Positions 14,053-48,772 are shown, numbered from the stretch's first letter. The stretch is 64,000 nt of DNA from Candidatus Nomurabacteria bacterium (GCA_943356525.1 CALRFG010000006.1:4024-68023); one strand, 5' to 3'. The notes: generated by a model not told the origin, from the letters alone. Numbers and translations: made by a program.

Positions 14053-16275
14053 CTATTTAATCACTCCTCTAGTTAATGGACCGAAGAACCCGACGGCAGG
14101 GGTGATCTTCATAGCTTTTTGAAACTTTATCAGTGCTGCCTTTGTTGCGGGTCCGAAGAGGCCGGTTTCCTTGCCTTTAGATCCGACGCCTGACAGAGCT
14201 ATGATGAATCCTTTTGAGTTTAGGTATTGCTGTAATCTTTTCACATCATCCCCTTTCGCACCTTGAGTGAGGGATCGTGAGAATGGCATATAAGCCGTCA
14301 CAGAAGTGGAAGATGCTACTGAGCTAGGTAGTAGTGATGCAGGTACAAATCTAATACCTGATGAAGAACCAGGTGTCCAATACGAGACTGAGTTTGCGAT
14401 ATCATTTGGAACTGTTAACATAACAGCTGTTGATGATGCCGATTGACCTCCGATATTAGTAGCAGTTATGTAATACAAATAAGTACTACCTTTTGTAAGA
14501 TTTGATATGCTGTACGTTGTATTGTTTGATGTTGTGGTGGCTATAAGTGCATTTGTATCAGTATTGTAAATATTATATTGAGTAGGTGGTGCGACAGGAT
14601 CAACAACTAAAGGCGCTGACCAAGTCAATGTTGCAGAAGTTCCTGAAACTGAAGCAGATAGGGCTGTCGGGGTATCTGCCGGCGAGGCATACAACGTTGC
14701 TAATATGTTAGATTCGATCATACTTCTAAAAACCTCAGAATGTCCGTAATTGTTAATATGAATCGTGTCAGCAACAAATCCCAAATAACTATCTCCGAAG
14801 GGAGATTTTATGGTTGCATCTGGGTTTGCTACCCTTGAAAACATATCAATACCTCTAGATGTATTACTTTGGGTTGATGTTCCGTATTCTGTTAGAATAG
14901 CATTTGAATACCCTGTTAATAAAAGTAACTTTGGTGCGGTCAAATTTCTTCCTGAAGAGGTTGTTATCCAAACAGGCACATTGGCAGCCCTGGCAGTTTC
15001 AACAATTGTTCTTATATATCCAGTTGATGATGCTATAGGAAAATTAAAATTAGCATCGTTGGAAGTGTAGTTTATTAATATAGCATTAGGATTTTGAGCA
15101 AGTGCAGCCGTTATGTTTCTTGTTGAATCTTCCCCTCCAGAGCCTGTCGGTAGAGATTTATTTGTAGTATATCCAGCTAATGCAAGATTAACAACACTGG
15201 AGCTGGCATTATATAATTTTGCATATTTTTCAAAAAGTCTTACCCAAGAGTTTTCATATATTCCACCTGGTATTGGCATAGAACCATACCCCTCAGCCGT
15301 GGAAGAACCCAACACAACAAACTTTTTTGCAGGACGTACAGATGGAAGAGTTGCTGGTAAAACTGTCACGTCTACATCATCGTAAACAACAGATCCACTG
15401 TTATCAACAGCTGTCATTCTGAAAGTATATTTTCCTGGATAAAGATTACTTACTGTGGTTGATGTAGCTGTAGAGCTCGCAAAAGTTGCATAAGCATCAC
15501 CAAACAAAGACCACGCTTTTGAAGTTATGGTTCCATCAGAATCAGTCACTGTGGAGTTAAGTGTTATAGAGTTTGTTGGATAAGTTATGGTTATATCTGT
15601 ACCAGCATCAACTACTGGGGGTAGGTTTGGTGTATTAGCTATAAGCTCAATAACATTTAGATGGTGATATTGCCCCGCTGATCCTGATGTAAAAGTTGCC
15701 TCTATACTACTTGTTGCACTTGGAGTTATGTTTGATATTTGAGCCGTGTTAGCTGTGTTATTTATAGACTCCAAAGTTGTTGAGGCACTTCCTATGGTCA
15801 TTTTTATCAACCTTGAACCAGAAAATGTTCTAGATGAAAACAATTTAACATTGTATGTATATGCTGGATTAAGACCATTGAAAACAAGCGTACTTTTGAA
15901 GTTACCAATACATCCACCCAAACCATCATATACATAGTCGTTTGTTGCGTTTGCAGGATACCCTGTTGTCGTAACTGTGGGAGCACCGTTACCCATACTC
16001 AATGTTTCGCCTGCACCGCAAGTTGGCGCATCAGAAAAATACATGACAACTGTAGATGTTGCACCCAAAGAGTCAATAAGCGAAGTTATTCCGGTGTATG
16101 GGGTCCCGAGAGAGTTGGGCCAGCTATTCCAATATTCTCCGTTTGTAGGGTTTACTGTGTTTATGTAACCAAAATCTATCTTATATACACCATTGTCCGC
16201 CAAAGCTTCGTTTGATATAAAAGAAATAACAACAAAAAAACATATTGAAAGAAATTTCCTGAAGTATAGACTCAT
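14053..16275 (-). CDS. Secreted multidomain protein: Ig/PKD-like N-region, SGNH/GDSL-type hydrolase, FN3-like, C-terminal peptidoglycan-binding domain
   Basis: Signal peptide. SGNH blocks VVLGSSTAEGYG (block I), TSNDAN (block III), DTIHIN (block V). Ig/FN3-like segments (VTVLPATLP; TALSASVSGTSATLTWSAP). C-terminal PG_binding_1-like GDDVKRLQQYLN..FGPATKAALIKFQ. Terminator hairpin at 13993-14025. Confidence 0.6.
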   Translation of the reverse strand: MSLYFRKFLSICFFVVISFISNEALADNGVYKIDFGYINTVNPTNGEYWNSWPNSLGTPYTGITSLIDSLGATSTVVMYFSDAPTCGAGETLSMGNGAPTVTTTGYPANATNDYVYDGLGGCIGNFKSTLVFNGLNPAYTYNVKLFSSRTFSGSRLIKMTIGSASTTLESINNTANTAQISNITPSATSSIEATFTSGSAGQYHHLNVIELIANTPNLPPVVDAGTDITITYPTNSITLNSTVTDSDGTITSKAWSLFGDAYATFASSTATSTTVSNLYPGKYTFRMTAVDNSGSVVYDDVDVTVLPATLPSVRPAKKFVVLGSSTAEGYGSMPIPGGIYENSWVRLFEKYAKLYNASSSVVNLALAGYTTNKSLPTGSGGEDSTRNITAALAQNPNAILINYTSNDANFNFPIASSTGYIRTIVETARAANVPVWITTSSGRNLTAPKLLLLTGYSNAILTEYGTSTQSNTSRGIDMFSRVANPDATIKSPFGDSYLGFVADTIHINNYGHSEVFRSMIESNILATLYASPADTPTALSASVSGTSATLTWSAPLVVDPVAPPTQYNIYNTDTNALIATTTSNNTTYSISNLTKGSTYLYYITATNIGGQSASSTAVMLTVPNDIANSVSYWTPGSSSGIRFVPASLLPSSVASSTSVTAYMPFSRSLTQGAKGDDVKRLQQYLNSKGFIIALSGVGSKGKETGLFGPATKAALIKFQKAMKITPAVGFFGPLTRGVIK

Positions 16276-21832: not shown

Positions 21833-22312
21833 CTACCTAGTAACAGATATATCTGGCTGTATTTCACCTGCAGCAGATATTGTAATTCTACCTCCTGTAT
21901 CTACATATAATGAATAGCCGGTAAAGTAATCATCTTCATTTATGTAATAGGCTGAAGTGTTTCCTGGCTCATGAGGAAGTTTTGGTAAATATTCAGGTAT
22001 CAAACAGTCAGCAAGATTTATACCATCTATTGATAATCCTGATGATATGCCGTAGTGAATACCTTGTGGTAGAGTTCTAACCGTACCATCACAAAAAACC
22101 ATACCTTCGTGATCAGCAATATTTTGCCCTATGGCATTCAATATAGTGTTTACATTGGCTACACGTTGAGAATCACGAGCTTGTTTAAACTGACGTGAAG
22201 GGTTTACAGCCACAAGTACAACGGTAGCAAGTATACCGATGATACCTATAACCACCAGTATTTCAATAAGAGTAAAACCTTTTTGTTTTATTTGTTTTTT
22301 ATTTATATTCAT
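21833..22312 (-). CDS. Type IV pilin / pseudopilin (prepilin with class III signal)
   Basis: N-terminal KQKGFTLIEILVVIGIIGILATVVLV: the prepilin peptidase site G|FTLIE with Glu at +5. Confidence 0.8.
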   Translation of the reverse strand: MNINKKQIKQKGFTLIEILVVIGIIGILATVVLVAVNPSRQFKQARDSQRVANVNTILNAIGQNIADHEGMVFCDGTVRTLPQGIHYGISSGLSIDGINLADCLIPEYLPKLPHEPGNTSAYYINEDDYFTGYSLYVDTGGRITISAAGEIQPDISVTR

Positions 22313-22365: not shown

Positions 22366-22836
22366 TTAAAGTAATCTAAAAGATTTGCTGAAGTTTACGA
22401 AACCATTTTTAAGTTGATATTCAAAGCTATAATCACCAGAGATAAAGAAAATATATTTAAGGCCGGTATTATTATCGAAAGTAATACTTATTTTTTTGAT
22501 ATTGCATTTGTGACTATCTGCAAAATAAAGATTTCGATCAAAATCATAAGCTTGGCCTATAAAACCAAGATTATACCTTGAACCTATGAGAATATTCATA
22601 AATGCATCGGAGCAGAGTATGTGATTGTGTAATGTTGTCCTATTTTCAACAAACTCTTTTTTAATATAAATATATTCGAATACTCTTTCTGAACTTAATG
22701 ATATCCAAGTTAGAAAAGTAAAAGATATACCAAGTACGAAGAATAATGCTATAAAGCCATTTTTATGTTGTTTGTGTATTGTTTTTTTCATGTGATTTGA
22801 AAAGATTTTATTATTTGATAATATTGTTGTTAACAA
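22366..22836 (-). CDS. Hypothetical membrane protein
   Basis: One TM helix near the N-terminus. Sits next to the pilin gene. No canonical prepilin motif. Confidence 0.3.
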   Translation of the reverse strand: MLTTILSNNKIFSNHMKKTIHKQHKNGFIALFFVLGISFTFLTWISLSSERVFEYIYIKKEFVENRTTLHNHILCSDAFMNILIGSRYNLGFIGQAYDFDRNLYFADSHKCNIKKISITFDNNTGLKYIFFISGDYSFEYQLKNGFVNFSKSFRLL

Positions 22837-23602: not shown

Positions 23603-24730
23603 ATGAAATTTGAACAAAAAAAACGAACAAAGAAAGATACTAAAATGACAATATGGATAAAACAAAAGTTAATCTATTTAAAAAATATAGATTTTTCAGA
23701 ATCAAAATGGCTTGCAATTTTTTCAATTACCGCATTATTGATAATTTATTGGATAACAAAAGATATTGCTATCACGGCGATGCTCTTACTATCAATCGTG
23801 ATTTATTTGGGATGGATTTTGTCACCTAGGATTATTATGTTTATGGTTTACCAGTTGATAGTTAGTACCTTAGTTTGGTATTTTCTAGACCAATATTGGT
23901 TACCCTTGATTTCAAATGCATGGGATTGGTTGAATAATTCTTTAAAAGCAGTAACCTGTACAGCGCTCGTTGGTTTATCAGTTTATTCAATTTTCTCATG
24001 CTGGGACGATGAAACATTAGGGGCAACTGATCTAGGTCACTGGTCTATATCAGAGTGGTTACCTAAAGAAAAGTGGGCTTCAAATCTTAAAAATGGCCCT
24101 CTAGGAGTATTCACAGGTTTACCAGCGTGGCTGGTTTCAATTAAGAAAATTCCTGGTATAGTAACACCTGTTAAAAAAACATTTGTTATACAAGTTGAAA
24201 TAGACGGCGACCCACTCAACAGAAAGTTTGCAGCTGTTTTCGATACAAGTTTTAACGAGCAAGTTAAAGATACACTGAAAACGCTTTTGGTACCAAGTAA
24301 ACTATCTGACTTGGAAAAAATATTTGAAAAAAGCCTTACAGATTGGTTAAATGCAAATAAGTATACTGATGTAAAAGGTCTAAAAGCTGACATTGTGAAT
24401 ATTCAAAAGAATGTACTTAAATCATTGGATGACGCTGAAGTAATTTATGGTAAAAAAATGTCTGACCCTAGGGTTATCGATATTCAACTACCGGAAGATA
24501 TTATTACTCAACAAATCGTGGAAGCTAAGGAAATCACTGACCTTGAAGGGTTCATAGAGCAATCTAAAAAACTCTGGCTTCAGTTCCCTAAAATGTCAGA
24601 TAAGGATATTGCTGACCTAATCTTAACACTAAGAGGAATCAATAAGAAAACTACGTTTAATACTACCGGGGGTAGCGGTGGAAATAAGAAAAATAGCAAG
24701 GCAGCAGCAACGCCCGTTGTCATTATCTAA
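23603..24730 (+). CDS. Hypothetical polytopic membrane protein with C-terminal soluble domain
   Basis: About 4-5 hydrophobic helices in the first 190 aa. Gly/Lys-rich C-terminal tail. Confidence 0.4.
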   Translation: MKFEQKKRTKKDTKMTIWIKQKLIYLKNIDFSESKWLAIFSITALLIIYWITKDIAITAMLLLSIVIYLGWILSPRIIMFMVYQLIVSTLVWYFLDQYWLPLISNAWDWLNNSLKAVTCTALVGLSVYSIFSCWDDETLGATDLGHWSISEWLPKEKWASNLKNGPLGVFTGLPAWLVSIKKIPGIVTPVKKTFVIQVEIDGDPLNRKFAAVFDTSFNEQVKDTLKTLLVPSKLSDLEKIFEKSLTDWLNANKYTDVKGLKADIVNIQKNVLKSLDDAEVIYGKKMSDPRVIDIQLPEDIITQQIVEAKEITDLEGFIEQSKKLWLQFPKMSDKDIADLILTLRGINKKTTFNTTGGSGGNKKNSKAAATPVVII

Positions 24731-24787: not shown

Positions 24788-24816
24788 TTGACACAAAATT
24801 TATAATATGATATAAT
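24788..24816 (+). promoter_or_regulatory. Consensus sigma-70 promoter TTGACA-17 bp-TATAAT
   Basis: Perfect -35 (24788-24793) and -10 (24811-24816) hexamers with a 17-bp spacer, 33 bp upstream of the 24850 start. Confidence 0.6.
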
Positions 24817-24849: not shown

Positions 24850-25377
24850 ATGAAAAAAATTAGAATTAGAAATGCAGTCATAAAGGTCTTTACGGTATTC
24901 GCGGCAATCTTTTTCATGAAAACGTTAGTTTTCAACAAAAAAGAGGTTACGGAGATTTCAAAACCACAACAATCCCCACCCCTCTCTGCTGAAGTCCCTG
25001 AACCACAACCTGTGCAACCGAAACCTTGGGTGTTTGATCGTCAAACGGTCAACCCAAAAAATAACTCGAGAATGGATTGGTCGGTTCCGACAACGAGCCT
25101 AAACCAAGCCACGGAGTGGTTTAACGTAGAAAATGTATCCTATTGGGGCTATCGGGTAAAATCTGATTGCCTTATCGAATACAAGTTCAAGGATATTACC
25201 AGGAAAAACGTAGTGGTAAAAATTGAGTATAAAAACTCTAACCATTACACCGAAGGCACTACTGAGCTTTGGAAACCTGATCGACTACTGGAGGTGGTAG
25301 ACAATACAGCAGAAATGCGTTTTATACCCCTCCCTGGTCAATCGTTGGTCGGACCGACTATTTATAGGTCTGAATAA
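24850..25377 (+). CDS. Hypothetical secreted or membrane-anchored protein
   Basis: N-terminal hydrophobic segment. Pro/Gln-rich linker. Confidence 0.35.
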   Translation: MKKIRIRNAVIKVFTVFAAIFFMKTLVFNKKEVTEISKPQQSPPLSAEVPEPQPVQPKPWVFDRQTVNPKNNSRMDWSVPTTSLNQATEWFNVENVSYWGYRVKSDCLIEYKFKDITRKNVVVKIEYKNSNHYTEGTTELWKPDRLLEVVDNTAEMRFIPLPGQSLVGPTIYRSE

Positions 25378-25401
25378 CATCACTGATCACAATTGATCAA
25401 A

Positions 25402-25440
25402 AAGCGCCCCCTGTTTACAGGTGTGGCGCTATTTTTTTTA
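25402..25440. terminator. Bidirectional rho-independent terminator
   Basis: AGCGCCCCCTGT-ttac-AGGTGTGGCGCT flanked by an A-run and a T-run. Between convergent genes. Confidence 0.6.
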
Positions 25441-25454
25441 TATAATTTATTAAT

Positions 25455-25754
25455 CTAATTATCATCTATATTTAAAACTCTGTTAACATTGTCTTTAGTT
25501 CTATCACTTGTTGGAACACTATTTAATATAAGTTTAAATAAACCAAACACCGATATCATAATAAACATTCCAAACAACCCCCAACCTATATGCAACCTTC
25601 CTTCTTTTATTTTTCCTGGATCTGATTGTGATTTATATATATATTCAAAAACTCCATAGATAAAATATATAAATGCTACAGCAAATAATAAAATAATAAT
25701 TGGATTTATAATAATTTGATTTATATTTGACAGTATAGAGTATACTTTTTGCAT
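25455..25754 (-). CDS. Small two-helix membrane protein, paralog E of the VirB2/TrbC-pilin-like family
   Basis: Hydrophobic helix, charged loop (KSQSDPGKIKEGR), then a second helix with GWGLFGMFIMISVFGL. Shares the xWG..V..V.VWGL motif with the neighbouring paralogs. Confidence 0.4.
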   Translation of the reverse strand: MQKVYSILSNINQIIINPIIILLFAVAFIYFIYGVFEYIYKSQSDPGKIKEGRLHIGWGLFGMFIMISVFGLFKLILNSVPTSDRTKDNVNRVLNIDDN

Positions 25755-25830
25755 ATAACATAATCATACAATAAAAAAAGACTTGAGGCTATAAACCTCA
25801 AATCTTTTTTATTAAACTAACTAAAGAAAT

Positions 25831-26220
25831 CTATCTTGAAGGAGGGGTAGCGTAAGGAGCTTGTTGTACTGGGACAGCAGGTGCTACTGGTATATTTGAG
25901 TTATCAAGGTTAAATGATCCTCTCAAAAGGTTTACAAGTCCCCAAACTGACACCATAACAAATAATGCAACTACACCCCACAATATATATTTTCCAGCCT
26001 CTGCCCTATCTGCCCCGTCTTTTCCTCCTAGGAAAAATCTTTTCACTATACCAAGTAAAAATAATACAAGTGCTGCCAATATAAGAAGTGGTAATGCACG
26101 TCCTGCTATGTATATAACCCAGTTAAGTAAGCCATCAATAGTTCTAGCTATAGGGGCTTCTGTTTGAGCAAGAACAAGAGCTGGTGCAAATGTTGCTAAA
26201 AGTGATAATATTTTTTTCAT
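25831..26220 (-). CDS. Small secreted two-helix protein, paralog D (VirB2/TrbC-pilin-like topology)
   Basis: Signal peptide MKKILSLLATFAPALVLAQ. Helix 1, loop KRFFLGGKDGADRAEAGKY, helix 2 ILWGVVALFVMVSVWGLVNLL. Confidence 0.45.
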   Translation of the reverse strand: MKKILSLLATFAPALVLAQTEAPIARTIDGLLNWVIYIAGRALPLLILAALVLFLLGIVKRFFLGGKDGADRAEAGKYILWGVVALFVMVSVWGLVNLLRGSFNLDNSNIPVAPAVPVQQAPYATPPSR

Positions 26221-26274
26221 GTTTTTTTTGTAAATTTATGATTTTATTTAATTTATAATTATGTTTTTATTATA

Positions 26275-26829
26275 CTACTTTAGTTGTGGAACAATCAAGT
26301 TACCACTGCCAAATAAAGTAAATTGAAGTATTCTAACAAGTCCCCAAACAGACACCATAACAAAGAGTGATACAATACCCCAGAACATAAACTTTCTAGC
26401 TTGCTCGCGAGCTTCTGGTTTTTGTCCATCAACAAAAGATAGTCTTAGTATTCCATACAGGAACATAACCAAAGCTGCTCCGATGATAACGTAAACAAGC
26501 TGATTCATGATTCCAACTAGCCATAAAACAACACCCTCGAGAGAAAGTTTTGGTACACCACTAGCTCCAGGAGTATAGTTTGGTTTTTGATTTAGTTCTG
26601 AATATTCACCTCTGTTTAAACCAGCACCTAAAGCGCTGTTACCGTCACCACCACCCATCATAATGTTTGCATCATATGAATCAGCTCCTCCACCAAACAT
26701 AGAGGAATCAGCTCCTCCACCAAACATAGAGGAATCAGCTCCTCCACCGTTATCAAAAGCATCCTCTATAGACTGTGCCCCGGCTCCAACCCCACTCAAC
26801 ATAATCATTATTATTAAAATTTTTTTCAT
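26275..26829 (-). CDS. Small secreted two-helix protein, paralog C, with Gly-rich GGGADSSMF tandem repeats
   Basis: Signal peptide. Repeats, then the same two-helix core (FMFWGIVSLFVMVSVWGLVRIL). Confidence 0.45.
   Translation of the reverse strand: MKKILIIMIMLSGVGAGAQSIEDAFDNGGGADSSMFGGGADSSMFGGGADSYDANIMMGGGDGNSALGAGLNRGEYSELNQKPNYTPGASGVPKLSLEGVVLWLVGIMNQLVYVIIGAALVMFLYGILRLSFVDGQKPEAREQARKFMFWGIVSLFVMVSVWGLVRILQFTLFGSGNLIVPQLK
26680..26749. repeat. 27-bp tandem repeat (about 2.6 copies) inside paralog C, encoding GGGADSSMF
   Basis: Unit ATCAGCTCCTCCACCAAACATAGAGGA repeated head-to-tail at 26680, 26707 and partially at 26734. Confidence 0.7.
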
Positions 26830-26856
26830 ATTTATATTATTATATTTAATTATTAT

Positions 26857-27234
26857 TTATTTTCCTTTGAATACCTCTTTAACTGTATCACCTATACCCA
26901 GAGCTAAAACCTCTGCTGTCAATATAAGCGCAGCACCTACAAGACCCCAAAGTAATGCATTCTGGGCTTTTTTAAGTTTTGCAGGATCACCTTTTGCAGT
27001 AACAAACATAAAACCTGCATACAATAGATATAACGTTGCGACCATTATCATTATAGTTTGAGCTACATCTAAAATATTCATAAAGATAGTTCTTAAGTCA
27101 GTACCTCCTGCTGTACCATCGCCTATAGGTGGAGTTAAAAAACCGTCTCCTCTAGTTTGTTTTGTCTGAGCAAACATAAAAACCGGTGTAGTTATTGTAA
27201 TAAATGCAATAATTTTTTGAATATTTTTTTTCAT
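26857..27234 (-). CDS. Small secreted two-helix protein, paralog B
   Basis: Signal peptide MKKNIQKIIAFITITTPVFMFAQ. Two hydrophobic helices separated by KGDPAKLKKAQN, with WGLVGAALIL. Confidence 0.45.
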   Translation of the reverse strand: MKKNIQKIIAFITITTPVFMFAQTKQTRGDGFLTPPIGDGTAGGTDLRTIFMNILDVAQTIMIMVATLYLLYAGFMFVTAKGDPAKLKKAQNALLWGLVGAALILTAEVLALGIGDTVKEVFKGK

Positions 27235-27254
27235 ATTTGTATTATACTTTAAGT

Positions 27255-27599
27255 TTATCTTTTAGGTAATGAATCCTGTCTAAATTCTGCATTTACACCA
27301 AGACTATCCAATGCAAATTCAACTATATAATAAGCACCTATTAACAAAATCATTCCAATAACTATATTTAAAAATATACTTTTAGCGCGACTACGTGACT
27401 GAGGAGAACCTTCACCTTTTACTAAAACAAAACCTGCATAAAATATCATAATTGTGGCAATAAAAACACCTAGCAATATAATATTTTGCAATAACTCATT
27501 TATAATGGGACCTAAATCTTTCCAACCGCAACCACCTAAATAAGGATCAGCTTTTTCCCCATTTCCAAAACATACGGATAAACTTTCAAATAATTGCAT
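27255..27599 (-). CDS. Small two-helix membrane protein, paralog A
   Basis: Two hydrophobic helices separated by KGEGSPQSRSRAKS. N-terminus lacks a clear signal peptide, so the start is uncertain. Confidence 0.35.
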   Translation of the reverse strand: MQLFESLSVCFGNGEKADPYLGGCGWKDLGPIINELLQNIILLGVFIATIMIFYAGFVLVKGEGSPQSRSRAKSIFLNIVIGMILLIGAYYIVEFALDSLGVNAEFRQDSLPKR

Positions 27600-27618
27600 A
27601 TGTATTTATATTATCATA

Positions 27619-28959
27619 TTATCTTGTTAAATATAATCTATCTAGTCTATCTGATGCATCTGTTATTGCATCTGATATGTTTTGAGTTCCTGAAACTATA
27701 GAGTTTATCATTTTAGAGAAGATGTCATCAGATGAATTACTGTTTGGATCAAGCCATGTCTGAGCAAATATAGCAGATTGGTTTATAACTGCTATATCAG
27801 GATTTGTTTTTGCAGCTTTTGAGTTTAACAAAACATCGCGACGCGCTGAAGCTAAACGTATAGAGTTTGAAAGTGAATCGTTTAACTCATATGTATTGAA
27901 AAATCTCATAACATCTTGATATGTAGCGTTTGCATTTTTTGATGTAATCAAAAACCCGAGAGAATATATTTTTCCTTTTGTGACTTTTTTCTCCTGATAA
28001 GCTTGAGGTATAGCCGCTATATCAAAGTATAAGTTCGGATTACGAGTTTTCAAATATTCCACTTCAGATCCTGGACCAAAATATATAGCCAAATCTCCAG
28101 CAAGAAATGCTTCACGTGAGGAGCTAAATGATTTATTCCATGTATATGATGATTTCGTAGGGTTGGCAAATTCTGTATAAAATATAAGAGCTTGGCGGGA
28201 CAAAGTAGATGCGGACTGTTCATTTTCTGTTAGTTGTTTTTTGTTTTTTACTAAACCTGAAACGTAAGCTCTTGATCCATCGTCGTAAAAAGATAAATCA
28301 ATACCTATCTGTGAAAGCATGGCAAACAGTATGTCTTTAGCGTGGTCAACGTTATCATATTCTCCTAGTGCTGCATAAGCCCTATCTATAATACCGTTAT
28401 CTTGCCTACGTACAACTTTTTCTGTTAAGTTAGTAAATTCCACCCAATCTTTTGGAGGTATGAGTATACCTTCTGATTTTAACAAATCAACATTGTAATA
28501 CATAACCAACGGATCTATCAACAAAGGAAAGGCTTTTATACCACCCTGAACGGTGAACTTATTTGCAATATCTAAGTAAGTATTTTTATAAACTTCTGCT
28601 GTTACGGTTTCATTTGGTATAGTTAGAAGTTTATTTATCTGACTGTAATACATGTAATCAGGGAAAATGATTGCGTCTGGACCATTACCTTCTGCTATTG
28701 CCTTAAGTATAGCCTGTTCGAAACCTTCTTCTTGAAATTCAATATATGTGAAAGTTGGATCCTGACCTTTAATACGAAAAGGTTCTATACCTGCATCTAT
28801 GTTAGCTTTGGGTAAAACACCCCAAATAGTTGATTTATAACCTGAAGTATTTATACCTGATTTACCTGTTGCAAATAAAGCTATGCCAATTATTCCAATA
28901 ACAAGAAAGGTTACTATAACCACAACTTGAAATATGTTTAGATCTTTGATATTACTCAT
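27619..28959 (-). CDS. Extracellular solute-binding protein (ABC-type, family 1-like), membrane-anchored, orphan
   Basis: N-terminal TM anchor. SBP-like segments (KAIAEGNGPDAIIFPDY..). No permease or ATPase gene nearby. Confidence 0.5.
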   Translation of the reverse strand: MSNIKDLNIFQVVVIVTFLVIGIIGIALFATGKSGINTSGYKSTIWGVLPKANIDAGIEPFRIKGQDPTFTYIEFQEEGFEQAILKAIAEGNGPDAIIFPDYMYYSQINKLLTIPNETVTAEVYKNTYLDIANKFTVQGGIKAFPLLIDPLVMYYNVDLLKSEGILIPPKDWVEFTNLTEKVVRRQDNGIIDRAYAALGEYDNVDHAKDILFAMLSQIGIDLSFYDDGSRAYVSGLVKNKKQLTENEQSASTLSRQALIFYTEFANPTKSSYTWNKSFSSSREAFLAGDLAIYFGPGSEVEYLKTRNPNLYFDIAAIPQAYQEKKVTKGKIYSLGFLITSKNANATYQDVMRFFNTYELNDSLSNSIRLASARRDVLLNSKAAKTNPDIAVINQSAIFAQTWLDPNSNSSDDIFSKMINSIVSGTQNISDAITDASDRLDRLYLTR

Positions 28960-29029
28960 TATTTTTATTTATTTAATTTTTATAAATTATATACGAGTAA
29001 TTATACTATATAATACCTAATTATACTCA

Positions 29030-31513
29030 TTACACACCTATAACTGAAGCCAGACTGTCACCTTCTCTTAACTTCATAACTCTCACACCTTGTGTATCAC
29101 GACCTAAGTTTGGTATCTCTTTCAACTCACAGCGTATTACCTGGCTTTTTTTACTGATAGCAACTATCTCATCTAACTCTGGAGTTACAACTTGTGATGC
29201 AATAAGATCACCTGTTTTATCAGTAACTTTGAAAGTTTTTATACCTGAACCTCCACGACCTTGTATTTTATACTCTGAAAGTGATGTCTTCTTACCATAA
29301 CCGTTTGCAGAAACAGTTAATAACTCTGCGTCATCCTTAGAATCAAATCGAACTGGTATAGCGCCGATTATATATACTCCTTTATCTAGCTTCATGGCAC
29401 GAACACCACCTGCAGACCTTCCCATCTCCCTTATTTCATTTATAGAAAAACGTATAGATTGTGCATCAGTTGCAACTAATATCATACTGTCTTTTTCATT
29501 AACAAAAGAAGCCTCTATCAAACTATCACCTTCGTCCAATGATATAGATATGATGCCACTTCGTCTCACATCACGAAATGATGAAAGGTTTACACGTTTT
29601 CCTGTTCCAAGTTTTGTTATAAGCATCAAAGAAATATCATCAACTTTCTTAATCTCTTTTGGCATAGGTAATATAGATGTAACTTTTTCATCTTGAGCAA
29701 GTGAAAGGAAGTTCATGATAGATTTTCCTCTAGTTGCACGTTTTCCCTCTGGTATATCGTACATTTTTATCTGATAAGCCTTACCTTTGTCAGTAAAGAA
29801 AAGAAGCTCGTTATGCATTGTCGCTGAAATGAGATGTGTTATAAAATCTTCTTCTTTCACATCCACATCCACAACACCTACACCGCCTCTTTTTTGTTTT
29901 TTATACTCGTCGGGGTTTGTGCGTTTTACATACCCACCTGCAGTTAGTACAAGTACAGACTCTTGATCTGGTATAACATCTTCTACTCCAACATTTGCTA
30001 CACCCCCTTTTACAATACGAGTACGTCTTTCATCACCAAATTTTTCTTTTATAGCATCAGATTCGTCTTTTATAATAGTCAATATTCTTGAAGGATTTTT
30101 CAATATATCCTTAAGGTCTTTAATGATTAATTGCAATGCTTTCAACTCGTCTTCAATCTTCTTTCTTTCTAGAGATGCAAGTCTTGCCAATTTCATCTCC
30201 AATATCGCAGTTGTTTGTCGATCTGAAAACTTGAACTCTTTCATCAATGCTATATGGGCTGAAGGAGTATCTTTACTTTTCTTGATGATAGCTATAATTT
30301 CATCGATATGATCAAGTGCCTTTTTCAAACCAAGTAAAATATGCTCTCTATCTTCAGCTTTCCTAAGATCAAATTCCGTTCTACGTCTAATAACATTTTT
30401 TCTATGGCCGACAAAATTTTCAAGAGCTGATTTTATAGATAGAGTTTGAGGTACCCCATCTACAAGTGCAACAAGGTTGTAGTGAAATGTTGATTCAAGT
30501 TGTGTATGTTTATATAGATAGTTCAAAATATTCTGCGGATACATACCGTTCTTAAGCTCAATAACGATACGTATATCTGAGGTGGACTCGTCACGGATAT
30601 CTTTTATACCCTCGAGCTTTTTATCACGCACAAGGTCAGCTATAGCCTCTATAAGAGATGATTTGTTTACTCTATATGGTATAGAATTGATCACAATCTT
30701 TGATTGTCCTGCTTTTTCTTCGACTATCTCAGCCTCTCCACGTACAACAACACCTCCACGACCATGAGTACAGGCATGTTCTATATCTTTTTGGTTAAAT
30801 GCTATAGCTCCCGTTGGAAAGTCTGGTCCTTTTATAAATTGCATCAAATCAATAACACTTGCATCTGGATTGTCTACAAGGTGTTTTACAGCATCCATAA
30901 CCTCGTTCAAGTTATGAGGAGGAATGTTTGTAGCCATACCAACAGCAATACCTAAAGTACCGTTTAGTAAGAAGTTTGGAACCTGTGTTGGTAAAACCGA
31001 TGGTTCTTTTCTAGTCCCATCATAGTTTGGACGAAAATCCACAGTATCTTTATCCAAGTCAGCCAACAAGTTAAGTGATATCTTGTTCAACTTACTCTCA
31101 GTATAACGAGACGCGGCTGCAGGATAGCCATCTACGTTACCGAAGTTACCTTGCCCCCAGATCAGAGGATATCTCATGTTAAAATCCTGGACCATGTTCA
31201 CCATAGTTTGATATATAGCAGCATCACCATGAGGGTGATAGTTACCCATAGTTTCTCCGACCACTTTAGCTGACTTTTGAAACTTTGATGTAGGTAAAAG
31301 TCCAAGTCTACTCATAGCAAACAGTATACGTCTTTGTACCGGCTTTAAACCATCTCTTATGTCTGGCAAGGCACGATCTGTAATAACCGACATGGCATAG
31401 TCTATGTATGACTCTTCCATCTCGTCGACTATATTTCTCTGAATAACGTTCTGATGAGGTATAACTTCTACTTCTGTATTTTCATTGTCGTTTGACTTGT
31501 TTGACTTTGGCAT
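29030..31513 (-). CDS. gyrA: DNA gyrase subunit A
   Basis: [13 protein letters not shown], the active-site Tyr region, and C-terminal beta-pinwheel repeats. Confidence 0.9.
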
Positions 31514-37718: not shown

Positions 37719-39884
37719 TTATTTGCTTGCGTTTAATATCTCAACTTTCTTTTCTGGCATTAATTCTACGATTTTATTTGCTATTATTTTTTTTGCTTTT
37801 TTAACTGTAAATTGATTCCAAAATTCTGCTTTAAGTATAAGATCATAATTATAATTTTTATAACCGTCTACCAGAGCTTGAGCTATGTCTGTAACACTTT
37901 TATTGTCATAGTTATTTTTTTTAGCAATCTCAGATAACACACCTATGTAGTAACCATACGAAGTAATGTTTTGTGGTGCATCTTCATATGCTTTTTTTAA
38001 TAAAGCCATTGTTCCATCTAGATCCCCTTTGTTCATAAGTATAATTGCTTTATTATATGCAAAACTTTGTTTTTCTGGTGAAAGTTTATACGCCCTATCA
38101 GCATAAACAAGTGCTTGATCTATGATACCAAGACTTCTATAAGTATTTGATACGAAATAATTATATCTTGCATCTTGATTTTTTTCTTTATCATATTCAT
38201 CAGTCAAATTTTTATATAGCACAGAAATATTTTGCTTTGTTGTACTGGAAACATTTTCTTGTGTCAAAATCTTTGGTAATAAAGTTGAAAGCTGTTCGAA
38301 AGCTTCAAACTTTCCTGAACCACCAAGTTCTAACACATCTTTAAAATCTTTATCTATGGTATTTGTAACACCTTTTGTTTGTAAACCCTTAAGTATACCT
38401 ATTAACTTTGTATTTTGAGTATAAGGTTTCAGTATAGTTTGATAACCAATATATGAAATAGCTATCAGAGAAATTATTCCTATTAAGATAATTTTATTTT
38501 TATCATCTTCAGTTAGGTTTTTATGTTCTATTTTTTCATTTCTGTCATGTGTATATCTATCATTTATATATGCCAGTATTAGGAAAAATAATACATAACT
38601 TGAAAGGTTGTCGAACACAAATATGTTATGGATAAAATACGCTGCCAATAGTCCAAGCCATACAGATCTCTCTATGATAGTAAGACCTGCACGCTTCGAA
38701 AATATAAAATACAAAGCTGTGACAAATAGAGACAAATACCCAAGTAGTCCTAGTACACCCGCTGCGGTCAACCAGTCCATAAACACATTATGCGATCTAT
38801 CAAACCACTGTTCTTGAGCATACATACCTGGATTGTAGTATTTTGCAAAAACATAACCAAAGTTATCTTGTCCCCAACCTAGAAGTGGTTTTTCTTTCAC
38901 ACCTTCATATGCCATGTGCCATATTAGAGTACGAGCTTCTCCTTGATTTTTCAAAACTGACTTATAATCTGTAGTTATAAGTGCTGCAAAACGATTTAGC
39001 TGATTTGAGTTTTTTACAAAATCAGATTGTTTGAAAATACCTAAAAACATAACTGAAACGACAACAGTAGTTAAGAATCCTATAGCTCCAAAACGGATGA
39101 TTTTATTTTTCTCCTTCCATGCAAGATAAACTGACGCAAGTATAAGACCTACAACCAATCCAACAAATGCTCCTCTAGTTCCTGTCTTCAATAGTATAAA
39201 TAGATTGAATGCAGCAACTCCTATATATAGAGCGATTGAAACCCAGTTATTTGTGTTTAGTTTTTTGGCCGACTTATGTTCACCAGACTCAAGAAGCTCT
39301 GCCTCCCTATTTCCTCTAAAAATCATAGCAGCTCCTAAAAGACCAAAAAATACATGTATAAGGGCATATACGCCCAAGTAAGATGAGTTACCTAGGTGGC
39401 CTGATATACGATCAGCTGCTCCAGTCGAATTACCTAAAGCCTGTATACCAATAAAAATAGATATGACTATTGATATGTTCAACAAATATATCCACTCGCG
39501 ACGTCTTATAGCAGAAGCGGAGATAATAAATAAACCCGCCATGTAAAGCATGGTTACCAAACCTTCCATACGTTCAAAATTTGACCATAGACTACGTGTA
39601 GGGTTTACACTGTTTAACATTGCTAAAAACAAAATAAACATAAAACCGCCCATAGCATATAGCATGACTGATTTTTTAGGACGAGAATCTTTATCAATAA
39701 GTGCAAGAGCAATATATGATACAGATGATAATGCAATCATAAGCCTCATAAAAATTGCTTTTCCGGTTATATATGGAAAGAATAATTCTCCAGAAAAAAT
39801 AAAAGGTGTTAATAATGTAGAGCCAATCAATATTATAGTGATAACTCTTAGTATTTTTTTAATGTCTTGTATTTGTGTATTCAT
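37719..39884 (-). CDS. O-antigen ligase/polymerase-like (Wzy_C) membrane protein with C-terminal TPR repeats
   Basis: About 10 TM helices including LKTGTRGAFVGLVVGLI (Wzy_C-like). C-terminal TPR-like repeats of about 250 aa. Confidence 0.55.
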   Translation of the reverse strand: MNTQIQDIKKILRVITIILIGSTLLTPFIFSGELFFPYITGKAIFMRLMIALSSVSYIALALIDKDSRPKKSVMLYAMGGFMFILFLAMLNSVNPTRSLWSNFERMEGLVTMLYMAGLFIISASAIRRREWIYLLNISIVISIFIGIQALGNSTGAADRISGHLGNSSYLGVYALIHVFFGLLGAAMIFRGNREAELLESGEHKSAKKLNTNNWVSIALYIGVAAFNLFILLKTGTRGAFVGLVVGLILASVYLAWKEKNKIIRFGAIGFLTTVVVSVMFLGIFKQSDFVKNSNQLNRFAALITTDYKSVLKNQGEARTLIWHMAYEGVKEKPLLGWGQDNFGYVFAKYYNPGMYAQEQWFDRSHNVFMDWLTAAGVLGLLGYLSLFVTALYFIFSKRAGLTIIERSVWLGLLAAYFIHNIFVFDNLSSYVLFFLILAYINDRYTHDRNEKIEHKNLTEDDKNKIILIGIISLIAISYIGYQTILKPYTQNTKLIGILKGLQTKGVTNTIDKDFKDVLELGGSGKFEAFEQLSTLLPKILTQENVSSTTKQNISVLYKNLTDEYDKEKNQDARYNYFVSNTYRSLGIIDQALVYADRAYKLSPEKQSFAYNKAIILMNKGDLDGTMALLKKAYEDAPQNITSYGYYIGVLSEIAKKNNYDNKSVTDIAQALVDGYKNYNYDLILKAEFWNQFTVKKAKKIIANKIVELMPEKKVEILNASK

Positions 39885-39921: not shown

Positions 39922-41226
39922 ATGAATAAACTTAAACAAAGGATAAAAGAAAAATGGGGTGAGGCTGGGTTTCAGAGGTATTTTCGGAATACGGGGTGGA
40001 TGTTTGGAGCTAGAGTGTTGACACTTTTAATTAATCTTTTTGTAAGTATATTCATAGCCAAACAGCTTGGACCAGAACAGTATGGTACTTTTTCTTTTAT
40101 AATAAGTTTTGTGAGTATTGCAGGTTTTACCCTATTTGCAATTGATTCACTTGTAATGAAGAGGCTAAATGAAGATAAAGATAGTACTGATAAGATATTA
40201 GGTTCAGCTCTTGCTATAAAGTTTGTAAATAGTTTATTTACCATAACCACAGCAACACTCGCAGGTTTAATTTTTGCAAATACATCAACTACAGTATTGA
40301 TGATATTTGTATATTCAACCTTTACAATATTTCAATCTTTTGGGGTTATAGATTTTTACTTTAAAATAAATGTACAAAATAAACCAATATCAATATTGAG
40401 TATTGTAGTAGTATCACTTTCATCTGTAATCAAGATCGGGATATTATACTATAATCTACCTTTGGTATACCTATTGTTATCTTATGTATTAGATCATATT
40501 ATAGGTGCAATTGGATATATATATTTATACAAAAAATACGTTGGTAGTATTTTCAATTTTAGTGTAGAAAAAAATATTGTAAAAGGTTTAATAATAAAAT
40601 CCTGGCCTTTAACCATATCAGCATTGGCAACCACTATATATATAAGAATTGACCAGATTTTTATAAAAGTTTTACTTGGATCAGAATCACTGGGTTTATA
40701 TGCAATAGCAGTAAGATTCTCGGAAGTATGGTTTATTATATCCGAAGTAATGTGTCTTTCTTTATTGCCTGCAATACTAAATGCAGAAAAAACTAATAAT
40801 GAATTATTTTTAAGCAGAAGTAAGAGGTTGTATAGCCTGTTGTTTTATTCAGCAATAGGTGTATGTATAATAATGTATGTAATTTCACCTATACTTATAA
40901 ATACACTGTACGGTGAAGCCTATAGTCAAAGTGTAAATATCCTGAGACTATATATATGGTCTATAGTAGGATTTTTTATAGCAACAGCTTTAAATCAGTT
41001 TTTGTTTGCCAAAGGTAAACTTAAAACCATTCTTTTTATGAATATCATAGGAATGTCTTTAAGTGTTGCGCTTAACTATATTTTGATACCCATTTTAGGA
41101 ATACAGGGTGCTATTTTGGCAAATATAGTTGCATATACATTGCCATTTATAATAATATTATCTTTAAAAAACATGAGAGAGCAAAGAATTACATTTATCA
41201 AAGCTGTAGTAAACCCTTTTACTTAA
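39922..41226 (+). CDS. Polysaccharide flippase, Wzx/MOP superfamily
   Basis: 434 aa, about 12 TM. Typical oligosaccharide flippase architecture. Confidence 0.6.
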   Translation: MNKLKQRIKEKWGEAGFQRYFRNTGWMFGARVLTLLINLFVSIFIAKQLGPEQYGTFSFIISFVSIAGFTLFAIDSLVMKRLNEDKDSTDKILGSALAIKFVNSLFTITTATLAGLIFANTSTTVLMIFVYSTFTIFQSFGVIDFYFKINVQNKPISILSIVVVSLSSVIKIGILYYNLPLVYLLLSYVLDHIIGAIGYIYLYKKYVGSIFNFSVEKNIVKGLIIKSWPLTISALATTIYIRIDQIFIKVLLGSESLGLYAIAVRFSEVWFIISEVMCLSLLPAILNAEKTNNELFLSRSKRLYSLLFYSAIGVCIIMYVISPILINTLYGEAYSQSVNILRLYIWSIVGFFIATALNQFLFAKGKLKTILFMNIIGMSLSVALNYILIPILGIQGAILANIVAYTLPFIIILSLKNMREQRITFIKAVVNPFT

Positions 41227-41229
41227 AAT

Positions 41230-42297
41230 ATGGACAAAAATAAAAACAAAAAAGTTGTTTCCATAATATGGGGTTATCATACCCACATGTACAACCTTGC
41301 GCCTGAAGAAAATTATCATTTACATTTTTTAAAAGTAGCCAAAGAATCAGGTTTCAAGCCTTACGCTATAGTCAAAGGATCTAAAGAAAATATGGAAAAT
41401 GATCCTAACTTTGACAAAGATATAGAGGTTATTGATTATAAAAATATCTTTCAGTTTTTATTCTTAATCATAAAATTTTCATTTCAAAATACTCTGTTTT
41501 ATGTAAATAGTTACGAGTGGCAGTCTTTCATGGTTCCCTTTATAGCCAAAAAAACCATATTCATGGCACATACACAACCAAAAAGACAAACCGAGAAAAA
41601 ACAAATGATTCAAAACTTTGTTTATAGATTTTTTACAGCAATAAGATTAAACAATGACACAGAAAAAGATTTTTTGTTAGAACAAGGAACTGATGAAAAA
41701 AAACTGCATGTTGTACCCCTTGTGGTTTCGCAAAGTGTTTTTAAACTTACAAATACTGATATAGGCACAAGAAAGGATTTGGTGTATTTTGGTAACGTTA
41801 CAGAGAAAAAAAATTTACCTACAATATTAAAAGCTTTTGAATTAGTAAAAGAAAAATACCCTGAGATTAAGTTGAATATTATTGGTAAGATACATGATGA
41901 ATCAATCAATGAAGCTATAGATAAATCAGTATTCAAAAAAGATATAGTAAGGTATGGTTTTTTACCTAACAGTACCCTGATTGATGAGATGAATAGAAAT
42001 TTAATATATTTAAATTCATCATTAGATGAAGGTCAATGTGTGGCAGTGTATGACGCAGCTTTGTGTGGATGTGTTCTTTGTTTGCCTAACATAATGTCTT
42101 TTATTGGAGTTTTTAAAGATGTAGCCTTATTTCATGATATATATGACCATGAAAAACTAGCTGAGAACATATTATTTTACGTTAATAACCCTGATATAAT
42201 AAAAAATTATAATAATAAATGTATTAATATGATAAAAAAAGATTATTCCATAGATAGAGTAGAAAATAAATTAACAACACTATTGTCAAAATTTTAA
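41230..42297 (+). CDS. Glycosyltransferase, GT-B fold (group 1 / GT4-like)
   Basis: C-terminal group-1 GT region (..FGNVTEKKNLPTILKAFE..IIGK.. EGQCVAVYDAALCGCV). Confidence 0.55.
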   Translation: MDKNKNKKVVSIIWGYHTHMYNLAPEENYHLHFLKVAKESGFKPYAIVKGSKENMENDPNFDKDIEVIDYKNIFQFLFLIIKFSFQNTLFYVNSYEWQSFMVPFIAKKTIFMAHTQPKRQTEKKQMIQNFVYRFFTAIRLNNDTEKDFLLEQGTDEKKLHVVPLVVSQSVFKLTNTDIGTRKDLVYFGNVTEKKNLPTILKAFELVKEKYPEIKLNIIGKIHDESINEAIDKSVFKKDIVRYGFLPNSTLIDEMNRNLIYLNSSLDEGQCVAVYDAALCGCVLCLPNIMSFIGVFKDVALFHDIYDHEKLAENILFYVNNPDIIKNYNNKCINMIKKDYSIDRVENKLTTLLSKF

Positions 42298-42306
42298 AAT
42301 TAAAAT

Positions 42307-43233
42307 ATGAATAAATTAATATTTAATATCAAAAAAATACTTAAACCTGTATTAAGAAAAATTTCAAATAAAAAAATAAGAGGTGTTTTTATAAATATAA
42401 ATGATCAATTTAATAAACACACATATAATAGTAAAGTTATATTGAAATACTTTGATCAATTTAATTTGAAAGAAATTGATCCTGAAAAATTAGAAGTAAT
42501 AAACTTTTTAAGAAATAATAAGATAAATCTCTTTCCTTATGATTTCATAAAAAAATACAATAGTTCCGATATAAAAATATTCGACGGAGAAAATGGATTA
42601 AAATACGGCCTGTCTAATAATAAAAAAATCTTCTTTAAGAGAAGTTGTTCAGAAAATGAGGCTCAACAGATATTATCTGCTTTAAATTTAGAACAAGACA
42701 ATGAGTCACCTCACAGATATTTAAATGACGATTTTACTGTAGATGAAAATGATATTGTATTAGATATTGGTGCAGCTGAAGGTTATTTTTCATTATTAAT
42801 TGTTGAAAAAGTTAATAAAATTTATATTTTTGAATCAAATCCTGAATTAATAGAAGCATTAAATACCACATTTGAACCATGGAAATATAAGGTTTTTATA
42901 GTAAATAAATACGTATCAAATAAATCAGACGAAATATTCACAACAATTGATGATTTTTTTAAAGATAAAGAACCACCAACATTTCTAAAGGTTGATATTG
43001 AAGGTGCAGAGTATGATTTTATACAAGGTGCCAAAAAACTTTTATCAACAAAAAATCAAATGAAAATTATATTAGCAGCTTATCATAAACATAATGATGA
43101 AATTATACTAAACGAAGAATTAAAAAAATATGGTTTTAAAACTAATTTTTCAAAAGGCTATATGTTATCTATTTGGGATGGTGTTATAAAAGAACCTTAT
43201 TTAAGGAGAGCGTTAATACGAGCACAAAAATGA
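42307..43233 (+). CDS. FkbM-family SAM-dependent methyltransferase
   Basis: DIGAAEGYFS motif and KVDIEGAEYD (FkbM signature). Confidence 0.65.
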   Translation: MNKLIFNIKKILKPVLRKISNKKIRGVFININDQFNKHTYNSKVILKYFDQFNLKEIDPEKLEVINFLRNNKINLFPYDFIKKYNSSDIKIFDGENGLKYGLSNNKKIFFKRSCSENEAQQILSALNLEQDNESPHRYLNDDFTVDENDIVLDIGAAEGYFSLLIVEKVNKIYIFESNPELIEALNTTFEPWKYKVFIVNKYVSNKSDEIFTTIDDFFKDKEPPTFLKVDIEGAEYDFIQGAKKLLSTKNQMKIILAAYHKHNDEIILNEELKKYGFKTNFSKGYMLSIWDGVIKEPYLRRALIRAQK

Positions 43234-44018
43234 TTAAAAACTATATAAATGTAATAATACCAATTATCAAAATATGCAAAAACTGGCATGTAATAATTTT
43301 TAGTAAATTATTTAATTTAAAAATAAAAAACATAGAACTTAAAGATGGGGTTAAATTTAGTGTAGATGGTATAATACCTAAAGCAGATCTATCTATGCTT
43401 GTAGAAACTTGGTTTAATCACGATTACACACCTTTAGGGTTTGAGATTGGTGAAAAAGATTTAGTAATAGATATAGGTGCAAATAATGGTTTTTTTTCTA
43501 TTTTTGCAGCAAAAAAAGCCACAAGTGGACATGTTATATCTTTTGAACCTGTACCTGAATTAGTAAATAAAATCAAAACAAACATAGACTTAAATAAAAT
43601 ATCAAATATTAAACTGGAGCAATTGGCTGTTTCTAACAAAAAAGGACATATTGAGTTTTATATTTCAAAAACCCACAACGGTTGTCACAGTCTGTTTAAA
43701 AGAAGTGCTTCAGATGATAAAATCATAATCAATACAATAAAACTTGAAGATTATTGTTTTGAAAACAAGATACAAAAAATTAATCTTTTAAAAATGGACT
43801 GTGAAGGTGCTGAATATGATATTTTTAATTCCCTATCAGCAAAATTTTTAAAAAATAATATTGAAAAAATTTCAATGGAATATCATGATATTATAGGGGA
43901 GCACAAGCATGGAGAAATTATAAACCAACTAAAAAATAACGGTTTTTCAACAAAAGTTTTAGGTGATTCAAACAGTGGTTATATATATGCATTAAACGAT
44001 AATTTAATTAATAAATAA
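43230..44018 (+). CDS. FkbM-family methyltransferase (ORF-track start 43173 is probably too early; likely ATG at 43230, MIKNY)
   Basis: DIGANNGFFSIFAAKK and KMDCEGAEYDIF. Confidence 0.65.
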   Translation: MIKNYINVIIPIIKICKNWHVIIFSKLFNLKIKNIELKDGVKFSVDGIIPKADLSMLVETWFNHDYTPLGFEIGEKDLVIDIGANNGFFSIFAAKKATSGHVISFEPVPELVNKIKTNIDLNKISNIKLEQLAVSNKKGHIEFYISKTHNGCHSLFKRSASDDKIIINTIKLEDYCFENKIQKINLLKMDCEGAEYDIFNSLSAKFLKNNIEKISMEYHDIIGEHKHGEIINQLKNNGFSTKVLGDSNSGYIYALNDNLINK

Positions 44019-44019
44019 A

Positions 44020-44865: not shown

Positions 44866-44904
44866 TATAAAGCAAAACCAAATTTATTAAATAAATACAA
44901 ACTC

Positions 44905-45642: not shown

Positions 45643-45646
45643 ATAT

Positions 45647-46441: not shown

Positions 46442-46445
46442 AAAT

Positions 46446-48738: not shown

Positions 48739-48772
48739 ATTTAGATTGTATCAGATATGATATAATAGATAA

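Follow-up and report, generated by a model that had tools for sequence, protein, structure and literature searches.

Patescibacteria represent much of the diversity of bacteria and make their living on other cells, but the ways in which they contact and exploit their hosts are largely unknown. In the sole genetically tractable species, a type IV secretion system (T4SS) and a series of pilins are essential, and Wang et al. (2023) report that the pilin series inside the T4SS cluster of Southlakia is essential for epibiotic growth (PMC10633639). A 2025 review counts six structurally conserved, sequence-divergent VirB2-like pilins in this organism (PMC12857230). On a broader scale, Quinonero-Coronel et al. 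(2025) surveyed 3,035 Patescibacteria genomes with the Pfam families PF18895 and PF04956. Pilins of the VirB2-like type were detected in 1,948 VirB4-containing assemblies, in 1,135 of which they lie near virB4, and the authors describe 441 arrays of 2-11 VirB2-like genes with a mean identity of ~25%, often not beside virB4 (PMC12102498). In the following, we describe a related locus at positions 25455-28959 of a 64,000-nucleotide stretch of DNA from Candidatus Nomurabacteria bacterium (GCA_943356525.1 CALRFG010000006.1:4024-68023; 'the window', from whose first letter all coordinates are counted), in which five small paralogous genes follow a gene for a solute-binding protein (SBP).

The locus shares its central features with the published arrays, as found in Southlakia epibionticum and in the 441-array survey: it encodes divergent two-helix proteins of the same Pfam family, PF18895, in tandem, and it is likewise chromosomal, in a reduced epibiont-type genome, with a VirD4-like gene far away. 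It differs from them in lying outside a T4SS cluster, the window scan having returned no VirB4, VirB6 or VirB3, and in being headed by an SBP gene, joined by a small methyltransferase gene in most relatives, with a fixed order of paralog types. A preliminary description of the same DNA had seen in the array a candidate for an uncharacterized kind of surface structure. This claim has to be withdrawn, since arrays of divergent VirB2-like pilins in Patescibacteria are on record in all three articles; it is the partnership with the SBP (and the methyltransferase) and the fixed gene order that apparently go without mention in the literature searched.

The most probable reading of all evidence is an operon on the chromosome of a Parcubacteria/Paceibacteria-type Patescibacterium, passed on by vertical inheritance, whose products would form a VirB2-like pilus or conduit with the SBP as a partner. 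The analysis shows that an anchored SBP is strictly linked with five differentiated PF18895 paralogs, that these have the topology of a hairpin with a charged loop, and that their genes are ordered by type; pilus formation itself is something we infer. The locus also shows that a large uncultured Parcubacteria/Paceibacteria-type branch maintains its pilin-like genes in a core-genome operon of their own, tied to a glycan-type binding protein and with fixed types of subunits.

Family assignment

The five paralogs are referred to as P1 to P5 in their order of transcription. Together with the SBP gene, they occupy the following positions:

27619-28959, minus strand: SBP gene, first of the operon (446 aa; SBP_bac_8, SBP_bac_1)
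27255-27599, minus strand: P1, first-position VirB2-like pilin paralog (114 aa)
26857-27234, minus strand: P2, second-position paralog (125 aa)
26275-26829, minus strand: P3, middle paralog (184 aa)
26678-26748, no strand assigned: 27-nt tandem repeat encoding GGGADSSMF, within P3 (TRF)
25831-26220, minus strand: P4, penultimate-type paralog (129 aa)
25455-25754, minus strand: P5, last-position paralog (99 aa)

As described before, these are five consecutive, co-oriented open reading frames (ORFs) of 99-184 aa. Four of their products pass the gathering cut-off of the Pfam family T4SS_pilin (PF18895; 26.6 bits), with 32.7 bits for P1, 36.5 for P2, 34.1 for P3 and 33.4 for P4. P5 stays below it at 18.6 bits and joins the family because the P5-type profile matches the P4-type profile (99.5%, E 8e-23). 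The P1-type profile is in turn matched by those of the P4-type (97.2%, E 4e-11) and the P5-type (97.4%, E 1e-11). Judged by these profiles, the paralogy of the five is far beyond chance, at identities of P2-P5 to P1 of 17-25%. Chance ORFs were considered as an explanation and rejected.

The link to the classical pilins was drawn with six annotated VirB2/TrbC proteins from plasmids of the MPF_T (mating-pair formation, type T) class, whose genes lie between a gene for a VirB1-type lytic transglycosylase and virB3 (in one case, the upstream gene is annotated just as type IV secretion protein). With these, the P1-type profile aligns over 63 columns that include both helices (hhalign 86.9%, E 4e-6). 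Furthermore, three P2 orthologs elsewhere carry precomputed matches to PF04956 (TrbC). The earlier proposal of VirB2/TrbC-like proteins is thereby supported by hidden Markov model (HMM) comparison, through the PF18895 scores of P1-P4 and, for the P1-type only, through the alignment with genuine VirB2/TrbC, and by sequence we consider the array to encode VirB2/TrbC-like proteins of the T4SS pilin family.

Type IV pilins were rejected as a candidate, in line with the preliminary description, since the N_methyl motif is found in none of the five. A true type IV pilin of the window is encoded at 21833-22312 on the minus strand (GFTLIE; N_methyl 34 bits). Its gene adjoins that of a 156-aa protein with a pseudopilin-like N-terminus (KNGFIALFF; 22366-22836, minus strand), and this pair, which lies ~3 kb from the array, recurs in L007. 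Nor do the five proteins have a significant match to holin or small multidrug exporter families in Pfam and NCBIfam, two unrelated families that the preliminary description had named as examples that would speak against its proposal, and holins were rejected. In PADLOC, no defense-family match was obtained for any of eight locus proteins.

Topology and sequence motifs

According to hydropathy and loop charges, each of the five paralogs consists of two hydrophobic helices joined by a loop of 8-14 residues that is rich in Lys, Arg, Asp, Glu, Gly and Pro. For P4, AlphaFold2 (AF2) predicts a simple hairpin in which a four-residue loop joins a first helix at residues 28-64 to a second at 69-102 (predicted local distance difference test (pLDDT) score 71). 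The helix-loop-helix topology with a short charged loop, as first read from the sequence, is therefore common to the whole array. Two other features are confined to some of its members. A Sec signal peptide, previously ascribed to most members, is suggested by the N-termini of P2, P3 and P4 only, and not by those of P1 and P5. Likewise, P3 and P4 have the helix-2 motif that was thought to be shared by the array, LFVMVSVWGLV, whereas P5 has a degenerate version of it (FIMISVFGLF) and P1 and P2 lack it, with YAGF...G.P...AK in its place.

Each type has its own layout. P1-type proteins, which in the lineage of the window are devoid of a signal peptide, have a conserved Cys pair in their N-terminal part, ahead of helix 1. 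A DsbB-like (7724-8194) and a DsbA/thioredoxin-like gene (8203-8910) form a pair on the plus strand of the window, so that extracytoplasmic disulfide formation appears to be available. P3 combines a signal peptide with a variable low-complexity N-terminal extension and a conserved two-helix core. In P4, the signal peptide and the two helices are followed by a Pro-rich C-terminal tail, and the helix-2 motif is invariant in the ortholog alignment. P5 consists of the two helices only and is the most position-conserved member of the array.

The expandable GGGADSSMF repeat that had been noted in one paralog, P3, is real and perfect, with 2.6 fully identical copies (100%) at a period of 27 and a TRF score of 142. 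Its copy number varies among near-identical strains, in which P3 accordingly measures 175, 184 or 209 aa, and in L011, a more distant relative, another repeat is found in this part of P3.

Conservation of the locus

A scan with one genome per species yielded at least 584 relatives of the SBP. Where a group is named, the best 80 of them belong to the Parcubacteria, Paceibacterota, Taylor-, Nomura- or Yonathbacteria, apart from apparently misassigned labels (many 'Saccharibacteria' and one Burkholderiaceae). On long contigs, SBP homologs at 35-47% identity recur in a common setting of gyrA, the SBP gene and five small genes, of which three to five belong to PF18895. The relationship between the two components was quantified with an array model built from the window paralogs, counting SBP loci with at least 1 kb of downstream sequence. 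In 72 of 72 such loci from species genomes, a pilin-like ORF starts directly after the SBP gene, at a median gap of 3.5 nt, and the arrays comprise 3-8 genes, with a mode of 5. The model produced 756 matches among 9,524 ORFs, and in SBP-bearing loci just 5 fell outside the downstream array. When approached from the opposite side, via the LFVMVSVW motif, an SBP gene was found directly upstream in 28 of 30 evaluable metagenome loci. Two metagenome arrays of 3-4 P4/P5-type genes (L126:6997-8333 and L128:6843-8626) have no SBP gene upstream, and so the link is not absolute.

The comparison of synteny in relatives, a check suggested at the outset, thus found the array preserved, with the SBP gene at its head and not, as had been supposed, downstream of it. 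Nor is the SBP an incidental orphan, since its gene holds a conserved place as the first of the operon.

The paralogs keep their places as well. In 61 other loci, the best match of P1 is the first gene in 41, that of P2 the second in 45, that of P4 the penultimate in 39 and that of P5 the last in 53. Each of the five paralogs has its positional ortholog, and this across genomes with SBPs that are just 31-37% identical. As the gene order is conserved by type, the duplications must be old and the types must have been kept separately, which argues against a pool of interchangeable variants and for structural specialists. Sampling concerned Paceibacteria-type arrays rather than other classes of Patescibacteria, and the search with P2, which used a word index, yielded close relatives only.

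A further gene accompanies the SBP in most relatives. In 80 of 102 related loci (L008:7507-8001 and 79 others), the gene directly before that of the SBP encodes a class I S-adenosylmethionine (SAM) methyltransferase of ~165 aa, and the two genes often share 4 nt. It is absent from the lineage of the window, where the corresponding interval (28960-29029) is empty of it and gyrA follows 70 nt upstream instead. From the sequences, the ancestral operon looks like a succession of methyltransferase, SBP and pilins, and the pairing of SBP and array appears to be widespread among Paceibacteria-type lineages, where a small methyltransferase is often co-translated with it.

The solute-binding protein

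The SBP matches SBP_bac_8 (71.5 bits) and SBP_bac_1 (49.1 bits) above their cut-offs and has one N-terminal transmembrane helix (residues 9-30). Its AF2 model is two-lobed (pLDDT 89), and a Foldseek comparison with the PDB returned oligosaccharide binders as the best hits (4r9g, 1eu8 and MalE; E ~1e-20, template modeling (TM) scores of 0.6-0.7), i.e. binders of mannotriose, trehalose/maltose and maltodextrin, which it resembles at 13-18% identity. Going by this model, it is a membrane-anchored SBP of the MalE-type (oligosaccharide) class. Among 20 homologs down to 34% identity, ~40 positions are invariant, many of them Trp, Tyr, Asp or Asn, which suggests a conserved ligand site.

No transport partner came to light. 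Genes for a permease or an ATPase of the ATP-binding cassette (ABC) type are missing from four Pfam-annotated neighborhoods that extend 8-10 kb to either side of the SBP gene, and no cognate permease or ATPase was seen among the window ORFs scanned. A crude regular expression for the EAA motif, applied to 1.2 Mb of loci, likewise gave no ABC partner; its sensitivity is low, as it also missed a known ABC-F protein.

Genomic context and transcription signals

The window is chromosomal DNA of low GC (guanine plus cytosine) content (~25-39%) from a Patescibacterium and contains, among others, topA, parB, dnaK, grpE, a block of ribosomal-protein genes with rpoA, gyrA, tsaD, secA, mreB and genes for penicillin-binding proteins. 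The locus belongs to the core chromosome, with gyrA and ribosomal genes on either side and no phage or mobile-element genes there. On the minus strand, the order of transcription is gyrA, SBP, P1, P2, P3, P4, P5, with gaps of 19 (SBP-P1), 20 (P1-P2), 27 (P2-P3), 54 (P3-P4) and 76 nt (P4-P5). The following features surround or interrupt the operon:

29030-31513, minus strand: gyrA, with a 70-nt gap to the SBP gene
28958-28986, minus strand: weak promoter-like site in the gyrA-SBP gap, a candidate only (9/12 consensus match)
25774-25810, minus strand: terminator-like hairpin with a T-run between P4 and P5 (17-pair stem)
25398-25430, minus strand: probable operon terminator 3' of P5 (AGCGCC...GGCGCT, then TTTTT; read from the sequence)
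24850-25377, plus strand: unknown membrane protein of 175 aa, convergent with the array
24788-24816, plus strand: extended consensus promoter, TTGACA-17-TATAAT (12/12), ahead of the 175-aa gene only
23603-24730, plus strand: unknown membrane protein of 375 aa, convergent with the array

The preliminary description had the array downstream of the two membrane protein genes and under the perfect promoter. Neither holds: both genes lie on the plus strand and converge with the array, and the promoter, likewise on the plus strand, serves the 175-aa gene and therefore not the array. The two membrane proteins have no homologs beyond near-identical strains (jackhmmer, hhalign) and no Pfam match, and were rejected as conserved partners of the system on account of the former. 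A different family of convergent genes, encoding proteins of ~400 aa, occupies the same position in ~40 loci; it has neither a Pfam match nor a link to the proteins of the window.

The region shows no enrichment of promoter-like sites over shuffles (39 found, 34.1 expected). In 92 arrays, a gap of ~96 nt (interquartile range 80-121) precedes the penultimate gene and the other gaps measure 5-17 nt; its equivalent in the window has 54 nt (26221-26274). The conservation of this gap points to an internal promoter or another regulatory element, by which the array would be divided into two blocks. After the last gene, a hairpin of -8 kcal/mol or stronger that is followed by a T-run occurs in 66% of the 92 arrays. 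In the window, this corresponds to the terminator 3' of P5, which lies between P5 and the convergent 175-aa gene and was missed by a consensus scan because its loop is long. The P4-P5 hairpin may reduce read-through or mark a boundary between transcription units. Comparable hairpins before the last gene occur in just 13% of the 92 arrays, and it was hence rejected as a conserved element and is regarded as lineage-specific.

A putative pilus and its alternatives

How might these proteins act? In the mechanism we consider, Sec/YidC would insert the five proteins into the membrane such that their termini face outward and the basic loop faces inward. A VirB4-driven T4SS encoded elsewhere would then extract them and build from them a pilus or conduit directed at the host cell. 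The paralogs would be non-redundant, e.g. one major and several minor subunits, and the variable repeat region of P3 would be exposed at the cell surface. A glycan would be recognized by the SBP, which would serve as an adhesin, receptor or assembly partner rather than feed an ABC importer. In support of a pilus or conduit, we count the PF18895 scores, the profile chain to VirB2/TrbC, the PF04956 matches of P2 orthologs, the published frequency of VirB2-like arrays in Patescibacteria, often away from virB4, the hairpin topology, the linkage with the SBP in both directions (72/72 and 28/30), the positional orthology, the oligosaccharide-binder fold of the SBP, the lack of a permease nearby and the published essential pilin series.

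Several observations weigh against it. To begin with, no pilus has been seen for this lineage, and the searched passages of PMC12102498, PMC10633639 and PMC12857230 do not mention a solute- or substrate-binding protein. The direct sequence link to the classical pilins is confined to one side of the array. To PF04956, only P1 has a match, which remains below the cut-off (21.9 of 27.9 bits, E 2e-4), and the P4-type (6%) and P5-type (1%) profiles do not match VirB2 directly, so that they connect to VirB2/TrbC only via P1. All five match NF045849, the Mbov_0395 pilin-like family from an integrative and conjugative element (ICE) of Mycoplasma, at 16.6-31.2 bits, below its cut-off of 40, which at least suggests a distant kinship with the pilin-like proteins of monoderm conjugation. 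Searching PDB sequences with the P4-type and P1-type profiles gave chance matches to membrane proteins only and no solved pilin, and Foldseek found nothing in the PDB at E <=0.001 for the model of P4, which as a bare hairpin with a pLDDT of 71 is poorly discriminating.

Secretion-system partners are not apparent around the array, either. VirB4, VirB6 and VirB3 have no match among the scanned window ORFs of at least 110 aa, a scan that left out four ORFs of the glycosyltransferase island (42307-46441), and shorter ORFs, including those of VirB3 size, were surveyed within 22-32 kb only. From the array, the window extends for 25 kb in one direction and for 35 kb in the other. Nor does a large Walker-A ATPase recur within 8 kb of ~160 arrays, and the T4SS link therefore rests on homology and literature only. 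In Paceibacteria, virB4 is usually found near dnaA and dnaN (PMC12102498), both of which are outside this window.

The soluble VirD4/TraD-like ATPase that had been reported elsewhere in the window was recovered at 52274-54031 on the minus strand (TrwB_AAD_bind 26.8 bits, TraG-D_C 24.1 bits, Walker A). It lacks membrane helices and ends in a long C-terminal tail of charged, low-complexity sequence, and its gene neighbors encode an acyltransferase and a D-Ala-D-Ala carboxypeptidase and are not T4SS genes. This fits the finding that VirD4-like genes are very common in Patescibacteria and mostly far from virB4 (PMC12102498).

Going one step further, the SBP and the order-conserved VirB2-like set may constitute one machine, either a pilus or conduit that would depend for its assembly or targeting on an SBP reading a glycan of the host surface or a new, pilin-derived membrane channel coupled to the SBP. 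In the literature searched, such an arrangement is not described for any T4SS. We put this forward tentatively, as a possibility with the odds against it. If the SBP is irrelevant, the locus is one more example of the published kind.

Among the alternatives to a pilus, the one that fares best is a complex independent of any T4SS, in which the SBP passes a host oligosaccharide to a hetero-oligomeric channel or sensor of ten helices and the likeness to VirB2 reflects shared ancestry, not pilus function. It would account for the near-obligate linkage of SBP and array in both directions, for a paralog composition and order as fixed as expected of stoichiometric subunits, for the invariant 11-residue intramembrane motif, for the lack of both an ABC permease or ATPase and VirB4 nearby, and for the missing VirB2 signal of the P4- and P5-types. 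We know of no transporter, however, that is built from two-helix subunits and an SBP. Moreover, the P1- and P2-types are recognizably VirB2/TrbC-like, array size varies from 3 to 8, two arrays have no SBP, and related arrays are found within the T4SS clusters of Saccharibacteria, where they are essential (PMC10633639). On balance, we deem such a complex unlikely.

Still less probable is an array of interchangeable pilin variants for antigenic or host-range variation, a role that has been proposed for Patescibacteria VirB2 arrays by analogy with Bartonella and Anaplasma (PMC12102498). The low identity of the paralogs (17-25% to P1) and the strain-variable repeat region of P3 would be in keeping with this. 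It is at odds with the positional orthologs kept across SBPs of 31-37% identity (e.g. P5 last in 53/61 and P2 second in 45/61) and with the high conservation within types, which includes an invariant motif; only the extension of P3 looks variable. Finally, that these are unrelated small membrane proteins (holins, bacteriocin or immunity proteins, small exporters) which match PF18895 by hydrophobic composition can be all but dismissed: although the profiles are short and hydrophobic and weakly match several unrelated membrane families (E 0.01-0.5), four of the proteins pass the curated PF18895 cut-off, no holin, exporter or defense family is matched significantly, the array model has just 5 matches elsewhere in SBP-bearing loci, and this part of the core chromosome is free of phage and mobile-element genes.

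For experimental work on the favored pilus or conduit, the locus offers a soluble SBP ectodomain, five defined subunits and a variable region on P3 that is presumably surface-exposed.

Comparison with other systems

The VirB2/TrbC proteins of MPF_T systems (PF04956), such as the T-pilin of Agrobacterium, share with the array the succession of signal peptide, helix, short basic loop and helix. They differ in their PF04956 scores, the array staying below the cut-off, in being encoded by one gene and not by five paralogs, and in their hosts, that of the array being of the monoderm type. Furthermore, the plasmid genes lie between virB1 and virB3, whereas the array has no VirB1, VirB3 or VirB4 neighbors, and the array gives no evidence for cyclization or processing. 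T- and F-type pili have a lipid-binding lumen, with which a positively charged loop is consistent.

No more than a working analogy can be drawn to the operons that encode minor pilins in type IV pilus and type II secretion systems (one major and four minor subunits), whose paralogs are likewise differentiated, ordered and non-redundant. Fold and signal are unrelated, and the five proteins lack N_methyl. For the SBP, a parallel is provided by PrgZ and TraC, the pheromone-binding SBPs of enterococcal conjugative plasmids, where an SBP is encoded together with a monoderm T4SS and serves in sensing rather than nutrition. PrgZ, of the OppA type, binds a peptide and delivers it to the Opp permease; the SBP of the window, compared with it by description only, differs in being of the MalE-type sugar class and in having no known permease.

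Also by description, the archaeal Ced and Ted systems for DNA import resemble the proposed pilus in having VirB2-like two-helix pilins (CedA1, TedC), a VirB4-like ATPase and a single membrane, and Ced has more than one small paralog (CedA1, CedA2), too (PMC9905601). The Ced genes, by contrast, cluster with their own ATPase and include no SBP (PMC9905601).

Other features of the window

Three further features of the window or of related strains were noted. A region of very low GC content (24-28%) at ~40000-50500 contains a polysaccharide flippase and glycosyltransferases of the families GT1, GT2, GT6 and GT11 (fucosyltransferase-type), and adjoins an O-antigen-ligase-like gene (37719-39884); judging by its gene content, it looks like a surface-glycan cluster, possibly of foreign origin. 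In strain L001, a RelB/YafQ toxin-antitoxin pair that is absent in L003 lies between secA and an HSP20 gene (1514-2053). Lastly, a 740-aa predicted surface protein with PKD, GDSL lipase, fibronectin type III and peptidoglycan-binding domains is encoded at 14053-16275 on the minus strand and represents a candidate for a host-acting enzyme.

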